From the NCBI RefSeq assembly GCF_058153355.1, contig NZ_CM177019.1: a stretch of 64,000 bases of DNA; one strand, given 5' to 3'. The position numbers were made by a program, and so were the translations under genes. A model generated the notes under the pieces. It saw only the letters and a list, made by a program, of their open reading frames with translations. It searched no databases and was not told the origin of the DNA. Below, piece by piece: positions 2,848-37,071 of the stretch; position 1 is the first letter of the stretch; each line of letters starts with the position of its first letter.

Positions 2848-4005
2848 GTGACTTATTTCCGTATTAATCCTGTTCTGGCGCTGCTGCTGTTGCTGACGGC
2901 AATCGCAGCGGCGCTGCCGTTTATCAGTTACGCGCCTAATCGTTTAGTCTCGGGTGAGGGGCGTCATCTCTGGCAGCTGTGGCCGCAAACGATCTGGATG
3001 CTGGTGGGCGTTGGTTGCGCCTGGCTGACCGCCTGTTTTATTCCCGGTAAAAAAGGCAGCATTTTTGCACTCATTCTGGCGCAATTCGTCTTCATATTGC
3101 TGGTGTGGGGCGCGGGAAAGGCGGCGACACAACTGGCGCAAAATGGCAGTGCGCTGGCGCGTACCAGCCTCGGCAGTGGTTTCTGGCTGGCTGCGGCGCT
3201 GGCATTGCTGGCCTGTAGCGATGCCATCCGCCGAATCTCCACGCATCCGCTGTGGCGCTGGTTGTTGCATATGCAGATTGCCATTATTCCGCTGTGGTTG
3301 CTGTACTCCGGTACGCTTAACGATCTTTCGCTAATGAAAGAATACGCCAACCGTCAGGATGTGTTTAATGACGCGCTGGCGCAACATCTGACGTTGCTGT
3401 TTGGTGCGGTGCTGCCTGCGTTAGTGATTGGTGTGCCGCTGGGCGTCTGGTGCTACTTTTCCACTGCGCGGCAGGGGGCGATTTTTTCTCTGCTGAATGT
3501 CATTCAGACCGTGCCTTCGGTGGCGCTCTTTGGCCTGTTGATTGCGCCGCTTGCCGCGCTGGTTACGGCCTTTCCGTGGCTGGGTAAGCTCGGCATAGCA
3601 GGAACCGGAATGACACCCGCACTGATTGCGCTGGTGCTCTATGCCTTGCTGCCGCTGGTGCGCGGTGTGGTAGTCGGCTTGAACCAGATCCCGCACGATG
3701 TGCTGGAGAGCGCCACAGCGATGGGCTTGAACGGAGCACAGCGATTCCTGCATGTGCAGCTACCGCTGGCGTTACCGGTATTTCTGCGCAGCCTGCGGGT
3801 GGTGATGGTGCAAACCGTCGGCATGGCGGTGATTGCGGCATTAATCGGCGCAGGTGGTTTTGGTGCGCTGGTTTTCCAGGGGCTGCTAAGCAGTGCCATT
3901 GATTTAGTGTTGCTGGGGGTGATCCCGGTAATCGTACTGGCGGTGCTGATCGACGCACTGTTCGATCTGGTTATCGCACTGCTGAAGGTGAAACGTAATG
4001 ATTGA
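2848..4005 (+). CDS. yehY: ABC transporter permease YehY
   Basis: 385 aa hydrophobic multi-TM ORF, GTG start 7 bp after osmF. Confidence 0.85.
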
Positions 4006-4924
4006 ATTTAGCCATGTCAGCAAACTGTTCGGCACACAAAAAGCCGTTAACGATCTCAATCTCAATTTTCAGGAAGGGAGTTTTTCGGTGCTGATTGGTA
4101 CATCAGGCTCCGGTAAATCCACCACATTGAAAATGATCAACCGTCTGGTAGAGCATGACAGCGGAGTGATCCGCTTTGCCGGAGAAGAAATTCGCTCGCT
4201 GCCAGTGCTGGAGTTACGCCGCCGGATGGGCTATGCCATTCAATCTATTGGCCTGTTTCCCCACTGGAGCGTGGCGCAAAACATTGCTACTGTGCCGCAA
4301 TTACAAAAATGGTCGCGGGCGCGGATCGACGACCGTATCGACGAATTAATGGCGCTACTGGGGCTGGAGCCGAATTTGCGTGAGCGTTATCCGCATCAGC
4401 TTTCCGGCGGTCAGCAGCAACGTGTGGGAGTGGCCCGCGCACTGGCTGCCGATCCGCAAGTCTTACTGATGGATGAACCCTTTGGCGCACTGGACCCGGT
4501 AACGCGCGGCGCGTTGCAACAAGAGATGACGCGTATTCACCGTTTGTTAGGGCGCACCATTGTGCTGGTCACTCATGATATTGATGAGGCGCTACGGCTG
4601 GCAGAACATCTGGTATTGATGGATCACGGTGAAGTGGTGCAGCAGGGCAATCCGCTGACGATGCTGACTCGTCCGGCGAATGAATTTGTCCGCCAGTTTT
4701 TTGGCCGTAGTGAACTGGGTGTGCGCCTGCTTTCGTTACGTAGCGTGGCGGATTATGTGCGCCGCGAAGAGCGGGCTGAAGGTGAGGCGCTGGCAGAAGA
4801 AATGACGCTACGCGATGCGCTCTCCCTGTTTGTCGCGCGGGGATGCGAAGTGCTGCCGGTGGTGAACACGCAGGGCCAGCCTTGCGGTACGCTGCATTTT
4901 CAGGATCTGCTGGTGGAGGCGTAA
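3998..4924 (+). CDS. yehX: ABC transporter ATP-binding protein YehX
   Basis: Walker [13 protein letters not shown] signature LSGGQQQR, Walker B LLMDEP; 8-bp overlap with yehY. Confidence 0.9.
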
Positions 4925-4928
4925 GCGT

Positions 4929-5660
4929 ATGAAGATGTTGCGCGATCCGCTGTTCTGGCTCATTGCTCTGTTTGTGGCGCTGATTTTCTGGCTGCCTTAC
5001 AGCCAGCCGCTGTTTTCTGCCTTGTTCCCACAACTGCCACGACCCGTTTATCAGCAAGAAAGTTTTGCCGTCCTGGCGCTGGCCCATTTCTGGCTGGTGG
5101 GAATTTCGAGTTTGTTTGCTGTGATCATTGGCGTTGGTGCCGGAATTGCCGTCACTCGACCGTGGGGTGCGGAATTTCGCCCACTGGTAGAAACTATCGC
5201 TGCCGTTGGGCAGACTTTTCCGCCCGTCGCGGTGCTGGCGATTGCTGTTCCGGTGATGGGGTTTGGTCTGCAACCGGCGATTATCGCCTTGATCCTGTAC
5301 GGTGTGCTGCCCGTCCTGCAGGCGACACTTGCCGGGCTGGGATCGATTGATGCCAGCGTGACAGAAGTTGCTAAAGGTATGGGAATGAGCCGTGGTCAGC
5401 AACTGCGTAAGGTCGAGCTACCGCTGGCGGCTCCGGTGATTCTGGCGGGCGTGCGAACTTCGGTGATTATCAACATTGGTACGGCGACGATCGCCTCAAC
5501 GGTAGGGGCCAGCACGCTGGGTACGCCCATCATCATCGGGCTTAGCGGATTTAATACCGCGTATGTGATCCAGGGGGCGTTACTGGTGGCACTGGCGGCG
5601 ATCATCGCAGACCGCCTGTTTGAAAGGCTGGTGCAGGCGCTTAGCCAGCACGCAAAATAA
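4929..5660 (+). CDS. yehW: ABC transporter permease YehW
   Basis: 243 aa hydrophobic ORF 4 bp after yehX. Confidence 0.85.
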
Positions 5661-5748
5661 AGGTATAACCTGCGAGCATGACGCCACCAATTCCGCCTAA
5701 CGCCATAAACAGGAACAGGGCGATGACCCCAATTTTAGCTATGCGCAT
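5641..5748 (-). CDS. yohO: Small membrane protein YohO (35 aa, [35 protein letters not shown])
   Basis: Below the 60-aa ORF-track cutoff; AGGAG Shine-Dalgarno upstream; single hydrophobic helix; overlaps the 3' end of yehW on the opposite strand. Confidence 0.65.
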
Positions 5749-5807
5749 AATGCACTCCTTATGTTAACGAAAGGATTGTACAGTAAAGCGCATTTGTTAA
5801 CGAATCA

Positions 5808-6539
5808 TTAAATGCCGAGTGGGAAAATATCATGGCCTTGTTCCTGCCAACTGGTAAGTTGCTGCTGTTGGGCAGAGGTTCGATTTTCACCGCACCACAC
5901 CAGCAATGTACGGCCTTCGAACAGTTCAGGGCGTAGTTGATTGAGCGAGTGGGCGAGGACATCAATGCGCCAGCCCTGTTGACTGGCAATCCAGCCCTCT
6001 AGCCACAGACGGGTGGTATCCTGAATATTCCAGCCAACCACCAGCGCATCTTTACCCTGTTTTTTACGTGCCGAAGCCAGACAAATGGCGATGTAGTTGA
6101 TCAGTACGCCGTCGAGGATCGCCAGCAGCGCCTGGAGAGTCGGTTGTTGGCACTGAAGTCGTCGGCGCAGAGGAATAAACAGGTGCGTGGTGAGTGTCTG
6201 GGCGGGGTAATCCTGACCGCGCTCTTTGATCCACGTTCGCAGGCTATGCAGATTGCCGCTTTGCAGGTAAGTCAGTAATGTTTCTTGCTGATCGCGCCAG
6301 CCGTTCTGCACATCAACATTTTCATTACTGAGCAGCATTTTAACTTTGCTGACCTGCACGCCGTTGTCGATCCAGCGTTTGATCTCGCGGATCCGGTCAA
6401 TATCGGCATCATTGAACAGCCGATGACCGCCGTCTGTCCGTTGCGGTTTCAGCAATCCGTAACGCCTCTGCCACGCGCGTAACGTGACAGGGTTAATATC
6501 ACAAAGCAACGCCACTTCACCAATTGTGTAAAGCGCCAT
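5808..6539 (-). CDS. mlrA: MerR-family transcriptional regulator MlrA (curli/csgD regulator)
   Basis: 243 aa, N-terminal MerR-type HTH (YTIGEVALLCDINPVTLRAWQRRYGLL). Confidence 0.9.
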   Translation of the reverse strand: MALYTIGEVALLCDINPVTLRAWQRRYGLLKPQRTDGGHRLFNDADIDRIREIKRWIDNGVQVSKVKMLLSNENVDVQNGWRDQQETLLTYLQSGNLHSLRTWIKERGQDYPAQTLTTHLFIPLRRRLQCQQPTLQALLAILDGVLINYIAICLASARKKQGKDALVVGWNIQDTTRLWLEGWIASQQGWRIDVLAHSLNQLRPELFEGRTLLVWCGENRTSAQQQQLTSWQEQGHDIFPLGI

Positions 6540-10183: not shown

Positions 10184-10314
10184 GTAAAACTCCATTTTAT
10201 TTAATCAAGGAACTGGTGACCACACCAGGGGCCATATAGGATATGCCTAATACCTTGGCGTGAGCAGTCCGGAACTGGAGTAGAACTCTTTGTAAAAAGC
10301 ACTATTTGTCCTTG

Positions 10315-12306
10315 TTACTCAAGCAAGGTTAATAATTGTTCGCAAAGCAAAACGCAGTTATTCATTGCTTCTCCCCGTGCCTCGCCTTCTGTATTACGAA
10401 ATTGTCCCAACACATGTGCCAGCCGATAAAAACCCATCGCGGTGAGTTCATTGACCAGCAACTCTGACTGACTAATGGCACTCTGTTCCTGATAGCGCCA
10501 GCCATTATGGAGCAGTTGAATAAGCAACGCCTGACAGCGCATCAGTAACTGATGAGTGGTAGACGGTACAGGCAGAACGCTGGCAGAAGGTAGCGGTGCC
10601 ACAGGCGCAGTTTCTGCGTCCAGCGCCCAGGCGCGGGTTTTTGTCATCATCACCCGTGGTTCCAGTGTCAATTGCCCCTCTACAAAACTGACAAAGCCAG
10701 AAACCAGACTCACGGGGTCGTCTGTTTGTTGTAACAGAGCTGCCATGCGTTCAACGGCAAAAGGAGAACAGGCAGATGCCGGAAGGGATAACGTCAGCAC
10801 ATTATCGTCACCTTCGCCACTGATTACCTGCGCATCCAGTGTCTGCCGACTGCTGTCCCAACCGAGTGAAATGCACTCTTCTACTGGCAGAATAAATAAG
10901 TTATCGACCTGGTTAAGCTGTCGTATGGCGGCTGGCGGACGTTGGCGTAAATATTCCCGCAAAGCCACAATGCCCGGCTGGCGCAGTGGTGCGCTCAACA
11001 TTTGCCAGGCATCAGGCGACAGCGGAACAACACTGCTTAAGCGGTTGCGGGTAGCTAATAGCAACTCGCCATCAGCACTGCGTTTTGCTGCTTGTGAAAC
11101 AATTTGCCCACCCGCCAGCGCGCCAGCCTGAAAACTAAACAGCCGCCGTTTTGCCGCTGGAGAGTTATCCTGTTCACTTCTCGGCCAACTGCGCGAAAGA
11201 TGCAAAATACTGCCGGTGTCGGGATCGGTGAACCAGATGCGTAAACCATACCGCTCATTATCCTGCCAGCAACGCATACCTAGTGACACCAGCCGCAAAT
11301 GATCAAGCTTTGCTTCGCCAGCAATGCCTGCGCCAATGACCGTGCGCCACGGTATGGGCGGTACTTCACCGACACTGTCACGTCGCGCCATCTCTTGTGC
11401 ACTGTTCAAGCGACTGGTTAACGCCGCAAGCTGGCACAAGCATTTTCCGGCATGATAGTAGCTGGCGCGGGCGTGGAAGGCATCAACGCTTGCCCGTAGC
11501 TGTCGTAGTGATTCACTTACCCAACGCCAGTTGCAGCGTTCCGCCGCTTGCTGCGCGCGGCTGAAAGCGGCCTCGTAGTGGATTGACGGTTGGCTGATGC
11601 CTCCCAGCCATAATGCCTGACTTAATTGCTGAACATATTGACGACATGCTTTACCTTCGTCGCTGGAAAACGGATCGTCAGATGATGTGACGTGTTCACT
11701 GTGCATCTGCCAGATCAAATGAGTAAATTCTGCTTGTTGATTTTTGGCCTCGACGAAGGCCTGCACAGCCAGTGCTACGTGTTCACACAGCGTTCCTTCA
11801 ATACAATCACAACGGGCGAAACGAATGCTGCTGCGGGAATAAAAACGCACATCGCTCATCGGTAAGCGGGCAGAGGGAATTTCGCCCGGCGTGCAGAACA
11901 ACTCAATGGTGATGCCTTTAGCGACCAGCGCCTGCGCGCGTTTGCGCGTGGTATTGGGCAGGGTAGCCAGTTCTTCCTGCCAGATTGCCGGATCCCACTC
12001 TTCTTCTTTTTCCGTAGGCTGGGCGGTGGCACAAAGTCGTTGATAACTTAACACCAGCATCACGCGATGACGGCACATGCCGCTGGCCCCGCAGCTGCAT
12101 TGAGCCTCTTTCAGTGCCTGACTGTTCGCCAGCCGGGTACGGACACCGTCACTGAACGTGGCGATTAAAGCGCCGTTCTCATGGCAGATTTCCGGGACAT
12201 TGCCATTTTCCAGTTCCTTAAGGCTGCGCTTCACAAAACCAGCATTGCTTAACGCCGTCAGGGCCTGCGGTGTCAGTTCTAATAATTCCGGACGTAGTGA
12301 ATTCAT
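10315..12306 (-). CDS. yehQ: SWIM zinc-finger protein YehQ
   Basis: Start taken at MNSLRPELL (ATGA overlap with yehP stop); two CxC-x(n)-CxH signatures (CSCGASGMCRH and CDCIEGTLCEH). Confidence 0.75.
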   Translation of the reverse strand: MNSLRPELLELTPQALTALSNAGFVKRSLKELENGNVPEICHENGALIATFSDGVRTRLANSQALKEAQCSCGASGMCRHRVMLVLSYQRLCATAQPTEKEEEWDPAIWQEELATLPNTTRKRAQALVAKGITIELFCTPGEIPSARLPMSDVRFYSRSSIRFARCDCIEGTLCEHVALAVQAFVEAKNQQAEFTHLIWQMHSEHVTSSDDPFSSDEGKACRQYVQQLSQALWLGGISQPSIHYEAAFSRAQQAAERCNWRWVSESLRQLRASVDAFHARASYYHAGKCLCQLAALTSRLNSAQEMARRDSVGEVPPIPWRTVIGAGIAGEAKLDHLRLVSLGMRCWQDNERYGLRIWFTDPDTGSILHLSRSWPRSEQDNSPAAKRRLFSFQAGALAGGQIVSQAAKRSADGELLLATRNRLSSVVPLSPDAWQMLSAPLRQPGIVALREYLRQRPPAAIRQLNQVDNLFILPVEECISLGWDSSRQTLDAQVISGEGDDNVLTLSLPASACSPFAVERMAALLQQTDDPVSLVSGFVSFVEGQLTLEPRVMMTKTRAWALDAETAPVAPLPSASVLPVPSTTHQLLMRCQALLIQLLHNGWRYQEQSAISQSELLVNELTAMGFYRLAHVLGQFRNTEGEARGEAMNNCVLLCEQLLTLLE

Positions 12307-33054: not shown

Positions 33055-33277
33055 TGATATTAATAATACCATTTAAAAAAATCTGCATTAATTAATAGAT
33101 GTGATAAATATTTAATATGCTTAAGTATTTGTTGTATTTATATTGCAATAGTTAATTTGTTTTAAATCAATAAAACAATATGTTTACATTGCGGCAACTT
33201 TTTTGATGTGAGAAATTTGTTTCCAAGAGATACAGACTCTTAACAACCAAAAAATAAATTTTATTAAGGAACATATT

Positions 33278-34590: not shown

Positions 34591-37071
34591 ATGTTGAGAA
34601 TGACCCCACTTGCATCAGCAATCGTAGCGTTATTGCTTGGCATTGAAGCTTATGCGGCTGAAGAAACTTTTGATACTCATTTTATGATAGGTGGAATGAA
34701 AGACCAGCAGGTTGCAAATATTCGTCTTGATGATAATCAACCCTTGCCAGGGCAGTATGAAATCGATATTTATGTCAATAAGCAATGGCGAGGGAAATAC
34801 GAGGTTATCGTTAAAGATAATCACGAAGAAACATGCCTGGAAAGGGAAATTATAAAGCGATTGGGTTTTAATACCGATAACTTTGCCAGCGGTAAGCAAT
34901 GTTTAACATTTGAGCAACTTGTTCACGGTGGGAGCTATACCTGGGATATCGGAGTTTTTCGTCTCGATTTCAGTGTACCGCAGGCGTGGGTGGAAGAACT
35001 GGAAAGTGGCTATGTTCCACCGGAAAACTGGGAGCGGGGTATTAATGCGTTTTATACCTCTTATTATGTGAGTCAGTATTACAGCGACTATAAAGCGTCG
35101 GGTAATAGCAAGAGTACATATGTACGTTTTAACAGCGGGTTAAACTTACTGGGGTGGCAACTGCATTCTGATGCCAGTTTAAGTAAAACAAATAGCAATC
35201 CAGGGGTGTGGAAAAGCAATACCCTGTATCTGGAACGTGGATTTGCCCAACTTCTCGGCACGCTTCGCGTGGGTGATATGTACACATCAAGCGATATTTT
35301 TGATTCTGTTCGCTTCAGCGGTGTGCGGTTGTTTCGTGATATGCAGATGTTGCCTAACTCGAAACAAAATTTTACTCCACGGGTGCAGGGGATTGCTCAG
35401 AGTAACGCGCTGGTAACTATTGAACAGAACGGTTTTGTGGTTTATCAGAAAGAGGTTCCTCCTGGCCCGTTTGCGATTACAGATTTGCAGTTGGCCGGTG
35501 GTGGAGCAGATCTTGATGTCAGCGTGAAAGAGGCGGACGGTTCGGTAACCACCTATCTGGTGCCTTATGCAGCAGTGCCGAATATGCTGCAACCCGGCGT
35601 GTCGAAATATGATTTTGCGGCAGGTCGTAGCCATATTGAAGGGGCGAGCAAACAAAGTGATTTTGTTCAGGCGGGTTATCAGTATGGTTTTAATAACTTA
35701 TTGACGCTGTATGGCGGATCGATGGTCGCGAATAATTATTACGCGTTCACTTTGGGGACTGGCTGGAATACACGCATTGGTGCCATTTCCGTCGATGCCA
35801 CGAAGTCGCATAGTAAACAAGACAACGGCGATGTGTTTGACGGGCAAAGTTATCAAATTGCCTACAACAAATTTGTGAGCCAAACGTCGACGCGTTTTGG
35901 TCTGGCGGCCTGGCGTTATTCGTCGCGTGATTACCGGACATTTAACGATCACGTTTGGGCAAACAATAAAGATAATTATCGCCGTGATGAAAACGATATC
36001 TATGACATTGCCGATTATTACCAGAACGATTTTGGCCGTAAAAATAGCTTTTCTGCCAATATGAGCCAGTCATTGCCAGAAGGCTGGGGTTCTGTGTCTT
36101 TAAGTACGTTATGGCGAGATTACTGGGGGCGTAGCGGCAGCAGTAAGGATTATCAGTTGAGTTATTCCAACAACCTGCGACGGATAAGCTATACCCTCGC
36201 GGCAAGCCAGGCTTATGACGAGAATCATCATGAAGAGAAACGTTTTAATATTTTTATATCGATTCCCTTTGATTGGGGTGATGACGTTACGACGCCTCGT
36301 CGGCAAATATATATGTCTAACTCAACGACGTTTGATGATCAGGGTTTTGCCTCAAATAATACGGGATTATCGGGAACCTTTGGAAGCCGGGATCAATTTA
36401 ACTATGGGGTCAACCTGAGTCATCAGCATCAGGGAAATGAAACGACAGCTGGAGCGAATTTAACCTGGAACGCGCCGGTTGCGACAGTGAATGGCAGTTA
36501 TAGTCAGTCGAGTGCTTATCGACAAGCTGGAGCCAGTATTTCAGGGGGCATTGTCGCCTGGTCGGGTGGCGTTAATCTGGCGAACCGTCTTTCCGAAACG
36601 TTTGCTGTAATGAACGCACCTGGAATTAAAGATGCTTATGTCAATGGGCAAAAATATCGTACAACAAATCGTAATGGAGTGGTGGTATACGACGGAATGA
36701 CACCTTATCGGGAAAATCACCTGATGCTGGATGTGTCGCAAAGCGATAGTGAAACAGAATTACGTGGTAACCGGAAAATTGCCGCACCTTATCGCGGCGC
36801 GGTCGTACTGGTTAATTTTGATACCGATCAGCGCAAGCCCTGGTTTATAAAAGCGTTAAGAGCGGATGGGCAACCATTAACGTTTGGTTATGAAGTCAAT
36901 GATATCCACGGTCACAATATTGGTGTTGTCGGTCAGGGAAGCCAGTTATTTATTCGCACTAATGATGTACCGCCATCGGTTAATGTGGCAATTGATAAAC
37001 AACAAGGGCTCTCATGCACAATCACCTTCGGTAAAGAGATTGATGAAAATAGGAACTATATTTGCCAGTAA
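34591..37071 (+). CDS. yehB: Outer membrane fimbrial usher YehB
   Basis: 826 aa from MLRMTPLASAIV; ORF track starts 15 bp upstream. Confidence 0.85.
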   Translation: MLRMTPLASAIVALLLGIEAYAAEETFDTHFMIGGMKDQQVANIRLDDNQPLPGQYEIDIYVNKQWRGKYEVIVKDNHEETCLEREIIKRLGFNTDNFASGKQCLTFEQLVHGGSYTWDIGVFRLDFSVPQAWVEELESGYVPPENWERGINAFYTSYYVSQYYSDYKASGNSKSTYVRFNSGLNLLGWQLHSDASLSKTNSNPGVWKSNTLYLERGFAQLLGTLRVGDMYTSSDIFDSVRFSGVRLFRDMQMLPNSKQNFTPRVQGIAQSNALVTIEQNGFVVYQKEVPPGPFAITDLQLAGGGADLDVSVKEADGSVTTYLVPYAAVPNMLQPGVSKYDFAAGRSHIEGASKQSDFVQAGYQYGFNNLLTLYGGSMVANNYYAFTLGTGWNTRIGAISVDATKSHSKQDNGDVFDGQSYQIAYNKFVSQTSTRFGLAAWRYSSRDYRTFNDHVWANNKDNYRRDENDIYDIADYYQNDFGRKNSFSANMSQSLPEGWGSVSLSTLWRDYWGRSGSSKDYQLSYSNNLRRISYTLAASQAYDENHHEEKRFNIFISIPFDWGDDVTTPRRQIYMSNSTTFDDQGFASNNTGLSGTFGSRDQFNYGVNLSHQHQGNETTAGANLTWNAPVATVNGSYSQSSAYRQAGASISGGIVAWSGGVNLANRLSETFAVMNAPGIKDAYVNGQKYRTTNRNGVVVYDGMTPYRENHLMLDVSQSDSETELRGNRKIAAPYRGAVVLVNFDTDQRKPWFIKALRADGQPLTFGYEVNDIHGHNIGVVGQGSQLFIRTNDVPPSVNVAIDKQQGLSCTITFGKEIDENRNYICQ

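Follow-up and report, generated by a model that had tools for sequence, protein, structure and literature searches.

The 64,000-nt stretch of DNA analysed here, hereafter referred to as the window, carries on its minus strand the gene yohO (positions 5641 to 5748, stop codon included), which encodes a small membrane protein of 35 amino acids according to the open reading frame listing, NCBIfam and the RefSeq annotation. Its upstream neighbour on the same strand is mlrA (5808 to 6539; open reading frame listing and RefSeq annotation), and the yehW gene is listed on the plus strand at positions 4929 to 5660. The open reading frame coordinates place the 3' ends of yohO and yehW in a convergent overlap (5641 to 5660). 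An earlier note on this DNA had described a 35-codon minus-strand reading frame with a good Shine-Dalgarno sequence that overlaps about 20 bp of yehW, and had named its product YohO. Both statements were borne out. The overlap comprises exactly 20 bp, the Shine-Dalgarno sequence AAGGAG (5755 to 5760, minus strand, read from the sequence) is located 6 nt before the ATG, and the NCBIfam equivalog NF010225 matched the reading frame with 80.1 bits against a cutoff of 57, aligning residues 1-35 with profile positions 1-35. RefSeq likewise places yohO at this position in E. coli, between mlrA and yehW. With respect to the YohO family (NCBIfam NF010225 / PRK13681), the full-length match, the same genomic position and a protein identical to WP_001216963.1 of the RefSeq genomes revealed no difference. 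A Pfam search of YohO yielded only a sub-threshold match to B12D (10.7 bits versus 21.5), and a sequence search of the PDB with YohO matched no chain. The identification of the gene is correct and was already known. YohO is said to have been first reported as a small membrane protein by Hemm and colleagues in 2008. Ribosome profiling, which had been suggested as a check of the small reading frame, provides published support for its translation, and the protein was also detected in a top-down mass spectrometry proteomics study of 2025 with a coverage of less than 50%.

The region is carried by 5,423 of 5,426 complete E. coli genomes. Relatives were sampled by a scan for MlrA with one genome per species, which resulted in 80 loci from Enterobacteriaceae, including the genera Escherichia, Citrobacter, Enterobacter, Leclercia, Lelliottia, Kosakonia, Phytobacter, Pluralibacter, Cedecea, Buttiauxella, Atlantibacter and Franconibacter as well as Salmonella arizonae and others. 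A YohO homolog is encoded immediately downstream of mlrA in all 80 loci, with the near-invariant core MA(I/V/L)(G/S)GI(G/S)GVML, and yohO overlaps yehW or a yehW remnant in each of them. The tail-to-tail overlap with yehW is kept in 79 of the 80 loci and comprises 20 bp in 33, 23 bp in 4 and 26 bp in 42 of them. The yohO-yehW pair of E. coli has been listed as a convergent excludon in a paper describing an RNA-seq tool (PMC12288877), and it resembles other convergent excludons in its tail-to-tail overlap, which is a matter separate from the repeat discussed below. In Escherichia sp. MOD1-EC7003 (locus L002, positions 3370-4200), the signal-peptide region of OsmF is joined in frame to the final ~28 codons of yehW; this strain accordingly has an internal deletion of the osmF-yehYXW transporter operon that leaves the yehW segment overlapping yohO intact.

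The 10-bp repeat and the yohO promoter

The earlier note had also pointed to a perfect 10-bp direct repeat upstream of yohO. The sequence TGTTAACGAA is indeed present at positions 5762 to 5771 and 5795 to 5804, with an offset of 33 bp and at distances of 13 and 46 nt from the yohO ATG, and no third occurrence was detected on either strand of the window. These coordinates were exact, but the assignment of the repeat to the 3' end of mlrA was not: since the mlrA stop codon occupies positions 5808 to 5810, both copies are located outside mlrA in the 59-bp spacer that separates this gene from yohO. A 68-nt spacer sequence is identical in 4,095 of 5,425 E. coli records, and two sampled variants differ outside both copies. 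A search of the window with the motif TTCRTTAACA returned 14 matches with at most one mismatch, compared with 9.1 expected, the two known sites being the only exact ones.

The repeat by itself is not statistically remarkable. The window contains nine exact direct repeats of at least 10 bp with an offset of at most 60 bp, including the yohO pair, whereas first-order Markov simulations gave an expectation of 3.06 +/- 1.8 with a maximum of 11 in 200 simulations. The remaining eight repeats start at 3246/3288, 7398/7458, 8335/8373, 31615/31642, 37172/37232, 42069/42087, 50443/50475 and 60438/60449, and together with the yohO pair they amount to about three times the simulated expectation. With about three such repeats expected and nine seen, one more of them would be unremarkable, and the identity over the full 10 bp is confined to Escherichia, as would befit a chance repeat devoid of function. 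This explanation is nevertheless very improbable, since the core of the repeat is kept at both positions and at a fixed spacing in many genera, and a published ChIP-seq peak lies over the pair. The significance of the repeat thus derives from its conservation and position and not from the repetition itself.

The position of the copies can be stated relative to a published transcription start site. Table S1 of Kim et al. 2012 lists a yohO start at genome coordinate 2213659(+) that is represented by 2 reads and implies a 5' UTR of 20 nt; the 50 nt upstream of it are identical to the window. When genome coordinates were mapped through the yohO ATG (2213679 equals window position 5748), this start corresponded to position 5768 on the minus strand, which is the G of the downstream GTTAAC and lies 6 nt after the hexamer TACAAT. 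Despite the two reads, the start fits exactly to the conserved -10 region, which is formed in the window by TACAAT at 5775 to 5780 (minus strand, -12 to -7) and in 79 of the 80 loci by TATAAT (57), TACAAT (16) or TATACT (6), almost always 32 nt from the ATG. The geometry of the start site and the -10 region places a weak -35 hexamer, TTCGTT, at 5799 to 5804 (minus strand, -36 to -31). The -35 hexamer is TTCATT in most genera, and the E. coli version TTCGTT matches the consensus at two of six positions and was not called by a simple sigma-70 consensus scan. The resulting layout is that of a sigma-70-type promoter, with a -10 region that ends 6 nt before the published start and a -35 region at a spacer of 18 bp. 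TTAACA was considered as an alternative -35 hexamer and rejected, as its distance to the -10 region supported by the start site would be 14 bp.

An alignment of the 78 nt upstream of the ATG, comprising 73 distinct sequences, revealed the conserved layout GGTTCATTAACA - N14 - TATAAT - N6 - GTTAACA - N2 - AGGAG - N6 - ATG. Within the Shine-Dalgarno sequence, GGA does not vary at all, and the A and G on either side of it reach at least 90% conservation. Based on the published start and the conserved -10 region, the upstream copy of the repeat occupies positions -36 to -27 and the downstream copy positions -3 to +7. Moreover, in most genera the mlrA stop codon lies within a palindrome, TTAATG-N3-CATTAA (alignment columns 24-38); the E. 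coli version of this palindrome (window positions 5797 to 5811) is the weaker TTAATG-ATT-CGTTAA, the right arm of which is part of the upstream repeat copy. Kim et al. 2012 assign another start site of 2 reads to yohO, namely 2213369, which lies within mlrA at a distance of 310 nt upstream (window position ~6058, minus strand). An RNA-polymerase SELEX peak at 2214150 that was published beside yohO lies inside yehW and is unrelated to the yohO promoter.

A scan of the mlrA-yohO spacer detected no terminator-like site, and this result bears on a possible regulation at the RNA level, in which the GUUAAC palindromes or their neighbours in an mlrA-yohO read-through transcript would pair and mask the yohO ribosome-binding site. 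The missing terminator would permit such a transcript, and the E. coli read-through RNA (5735 to 5815, minus strand) is predicted to fold at -18.4 kcal/mol (z = -1.95), pairing UCCUU with the Shine-Dalgarno sequence and AUGCGC of the promoter spacer with GCGCAU at the yohO start codon. However, RNAalifold yielded 0 consensus pairs in the 73 sequences, the pairing predicted for E. coli is not kept in other genera, and the minimum free energy structure leaves the two repeat copies unpaired with each other. Moreover, the upstream copy is absent from the primary transcript, because this transcript starts inside the downstream copy, and a search of Rfam at E values up to 1 returned no match. The fold, the RNAalifold prediction, the terminator scan and the Rfam search led us to reject an RNA hairpin, a terminator or a known RNA family, and a mechanism acting on the RNA appears exceedingly improbable.

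ArcA-type half-sites, occupancy and the response to oxygen

The regulator behind the repeat had been proposed to be an unknown one. Read on the plus strand of the window, each copy corresponds to (A/T)TGTTAACGA, the consensus of the direct-repeat element bound by ArcA, and this likeness was quantified with a 10-bp half-site matrix that was rebuilt from 235 elements of 100 sites in Table S4 of Park et al., leaving yohO out. The half-site next to the transcription start, ATGTTAACGA (5761 to 5770, plus strand; -2 to +8), which contains the copy at 5762 to 5771, scored 10.06 bits, and the upstream half-site TTGTTAACGA (5794 to 5803, plus strand; -35 to -26), which contains the copy at 5795 to 5804, scored 10.05 bits, compared with a median of 7.0 bits for the training elements. 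The comparison with known regulator motifs that had been envisaged for the 10-mer thus returned values of about 10 bits for both copies on the ArcA matrix. In the 128 kb of the two window strands, no more than 18 positions reached 10 bits, and the yohO copies are the sole same-strand pair of at least 9 bits at an offset of 11, 22 or 33 bp in the window. Between the copies, the positions at +11 and +22 scored -4.9 and -8.0 bits and are unlike an ArcA element. Beyond the upstream copy, a weak half-site, TCATTAAATG (5805 to 5814, plus strand), covers the mlrA stop codon and scored 2.44 bits. The resulting order of half-sites is strong, none, none, strong, weak. The downstream copy is devoid of a partner at 11 bp (-4.9 and -7.9 bits at +11 and -11) and does not form a two-element ArcA box, so that it could be counted solely as an additional element at 33 bp.

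Occupancy of this region by ArcA has been published. In the ChIP-seq analysis of Park et al. 2013 (PLoS Genet 9:e1003839), yohO is one of 176 ArcA-bound regions, with peaks at 2213656 and 2213637 in two replicates and enrichments of 2.5 and 1.9. The best ArcA box assigned to it is ttgttaacgaatcattaa at 2213630(-) with 14.2 bits, and Tables S3 and S4 of this study describe a two-element site consisting of DR1 at 2213630(-) with 10.04 bits and DR2 at 2213619 with 1.56 bits. Coordinate mapping through the yohO ATG identified DR1 with window positions 5794 to 5803, that is, with the upstream copy of the repeat; DR2 corresponds to the weak half-site over the mlrA stop codon. At 14.2 bits, the box formed by TTGTTAACGA and its weak partner TCATTAAATG is above the 10-bit reporting limit of the paper and below its 15-bit cutoff for genome scans. 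The downstream copy (2213663) is not recorded among the elements of Park et al. 2013, and the catalogue extends sites only by elements that are 10-12 or 22 bp away from the core pair. The assumption of an unknown regulator therefore did not hold up as well as that of binding sites: the conserved core and fixed spacing make the copies likely sites, but their regulator is probably one that is already known, because a published ArcA box under a ChIP-seq peak has the upstream copy as its strong half-site.

With respect to the peak position, the mean of the two replicates (2213647, equal to window position 5780) coincides with the midpoint of the two copies. When the systematic offset of peaks from boxes in the dataset was allowed for (median -30 bp, standard deviation 30), the peak ranked at the 92nd percentile relative to the annotated box and at the 76th relative to the downstream copy. 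The position would therefore suit the downstream copy, or both copies, better than the annotated box alone, which we count as weak evidence only. Among the 128 sites with a predicted ArcA box and a peak in each of the two replicates, yohO shows the lowest enrichment. For a further ArcA ChIP study (Federowicz 2014), yohO was not found in the accessible supplementary files. The window additionally contains two further ArcA boxes of Park et al. 2013, the yehB_intragenic box as an exact match (34900 to 34920, minus strand) and that of the yehD promoter with 1 mismatch (33168 to 33200, minus strand). Two ArcA-like half-sites with scores of at least 8 bits, spaced by 22 bp, TTGTAAAAAG ... TTGTTACTCA (10290 to 10321, plus strand), are absent from the published ArcA list.

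Expression data relate yohO to the oxygen supply. In RNA-seq data of Shigella flexneri, yohO expression changed by a log2 fold-change of -2.96 without oxygen, an 8-fold fall, and no effect of an fnr deletion on yohO was reported. An anaerobic decrease that is independent of FNR is the pattern expected for an ArcA-repressed gene and lends indirect support to such a regulation. In the array data of Park et al. 2013, the log2 signals of yohO were 7.17 in the wild type and 7.77 in the arcA mutant, which is no significant change, and the gene was classed as lowly expressed.

Conservation of the two copies in the Enterobacteriaceae

Conservation in related genomes had been named as decisive for the repeat, and the core TGTTAA proved to be conserved at both positions and with fixed spacing in most of the 80 loci across many genera. 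The upstream position carries an element of at least 7.8 bits in nearly all loci and the downstream position one of at least 6 bits in most of them; in the background, a match of 8 bits or more occurs once per 2,388 positions. The downstream element is present in Escherichia, most Citrobacter, S. arizonae, Enterobacter, Leclercia, Lelliottia, Phytobacter, Pluralibacter, Cedecea and part of Kosakonia, and it was not found among the 80 loci in Buttiauxella, Atlantibacter, Franconibacter, Pseudescherichia and two Kosakonia. The 10-bp identity itself is restricted to Escherichia, in which the upstream copy changed from TTCATTAACA to TTCGTTAACA, and outside this genus the copies share only the 6-7 bp (R)TTAACA.

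In the Citrobacter freundii group, 8 bp are deleted from the stretch that separates the upstream TTAACA from the -10 region, which reduces the spacing to 25 bp, and the downstream element is decayed to TGTGAA. The deletion affects loci L008, L010, L012-L015, L017, L019 and L023, about 50 to 25 nt before the yohO ATG, and brings the TTAATA over the mlrA stop codon into the -35 position. In loci L008, L010, L018 and L019, 15-140 bp are inserted between mlrA and the promoter.

The conservation near -35 and +1 may in part reflect promoter and leader function. In its strict form, this explanation would hold that the upstream copy is merely the -35 region with adjacent spacer, that the downstream copy is the A/U-rich leader at which transcription initiates, and that the ArcA ChIP signal is incidental. 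The upstream copy does overlap the -35 hexamer, with which the extra conserved bases of the upstream element coincide, such that the additional TGA of TGTTAATGA is explained by the -35 region and not by ArcA; the transcription start lies inside the downstream copy; and the ChIP enrichment of yohO is the weakest in the table, with an arcA effect that is not significant. On the other hand, the upstream TTAACA (-32 to -27) is at least 90% conserved among the 73 sequences, although it lies in the spacer, where sigma-70 makes no base-specific contacts. The conservation of the downstream copy follows the ArcA matrix position by position from +1 to +8. Across 47 distinct promoter haplotypes, TGTTAA is retained, position -3 is restricted to A or T and +4 to +6 vary freely, and per-position conservation and the information content of the matrix are correlated with a Spearman coefficient of 0.88, the p-value of which is only nominal because the haplotypes are phylogenetically related. 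Two 10-bit matches in phase are furthermore unlikely to arise by chance, and the FNR-independent anaerobic repression demands some regulator. We consider promoter and leader function alone an unlikely, but by no means negligible, account of the data.

A DNA-binding protein other than ArcA might also recognize TGTTAA or GTTAAC, for instance a regulator of the OmpR/PhoB family such as PhoP (TGTTTA) or an uncharacterised factor. In favour of such a protein, the half-site is short and similar to the half-sites of related winged-helix regulators, the arrangement with 33 bp is not that of a canonical ArcA box, and both E. coli copies contain the palindrome GTTAAC and also score 7.3-8.1 bits on the opposite strand. 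The conserved unit is, however, the asymmetric TGTTAA and not the palindrome, since the upstream copy reads ATTAAC outside Escherichia. The PhoB, PhoP and OmpR operators are alike in type, being tandem direct repeats spaced by about one helical turn and bound by winged-helix response regulators, but the PhoP consensus TGTTTA and the PhoB consensus CTGTCA differ from the yohO elements. Autoregulation by the adjacent mlrA gene product through TGTACAAT, which presumably resembles half of an MlrA box, was rejected: by inspection, this sequence is the -10 region of E. coli, reads TATAAT elsewhere and has no upstream partner. PhoB and ArcA boxes have been described as highly similar in spacing and composition (Park et al. 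2013). ArcA is the only factor for which in vivo occupancy data were found at yohO, and no link of yohO to another regulator was found in the literature. Binding by a different protein is accordingly regarded as distinctly unlikely.

A model for ArcA-dependent repression of yohO

Taken together, we favour, by a little more than even chance, the explanation that the two copies are equally strong ArcA half-sites and that phosphorylated ArcA represses yohO by occluding its promoter. According to this model, yohO would be transcribed independently of mlrA from a promoter in the 59-bp gap after this gene and would encode a 35-amino-acid inner-membrane protein. The copies would act as ArcA-P elements of the same orientation with the core TGTTAA, 33 bp and thus three helical turns apart, one over the -35 region (-36 to -27) and the other over the start site (-3 to +7). 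When oxygen is scarce, ArcA-P would bind to these elements and block RNA polymerase, so that YohO would be made mainly under aerobic conditions. That the copies lie over -35 and +1, where repression is usually exerted, counts in favour of this model. We infer from the evidence given above that the downstream copy is bound, that the binding represses transcription and that ArcA is behind the anaerobic repression.

Like the ArcA-repressed multi-element promoters of icdA, sdhC and cyoA (Park et al. 2013), yohO has elements with the consensus (A/T)TGTTAA that are present in one orientation, phased by multiples of 11 bp and overlapping with sigma-70 promoter elements. Unlike the catalogued ArcA sites, in which the core pair is spaced by 11 bp and additional elements follow at 10-12 or 22 bp, the strong half-sites of yohO are 33 bp apart. 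This spacing is non-canonical, the canonical unit consisting of two half-sites 11 bp apart. Isolated half-sites at -35 and +1, with none between them, might cooperate as a non-canonical ArcA operator that brackets the RNA-polymerase footprint, for example by means of two ArcA-P dimers with one good half-site each or of a higher ArcA-P oligomer that spans the promoter. We regard such an operator as rather unlikely; if it exists, YohO would be an ArcA-controlled small membrane protein specific to aerobic conditions. By analogy, YohO could be imagined as an accessory to the aerobic respiratory machinery, in the way that CydX and CydH are accessories to cytochrome bd, but this is pure speculation.

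The case matters little insofar as yohO was already annotated and experimentally detected and its promoter region was already among the published ArcA-bound sites. Only the second half-site, which had not been recorded, and the geometry of the promoter go beyond what is essentially contained in the literature. The present analysis adds another ArcA-type half-site of equal strength that covers the transcription start, the promoter anatomy by which the two half-sites fall on -35 and +1, the conservation of both half-sites across much of the Enterobacteriaceae and the tie to the FNR-independent anaerobic repression in Shigella. The yohO promoter would thereby provide a minor example of an ArcA site architecture with 33-bp spacing and the testable hypothesis that YohO is made when oxygen is present.
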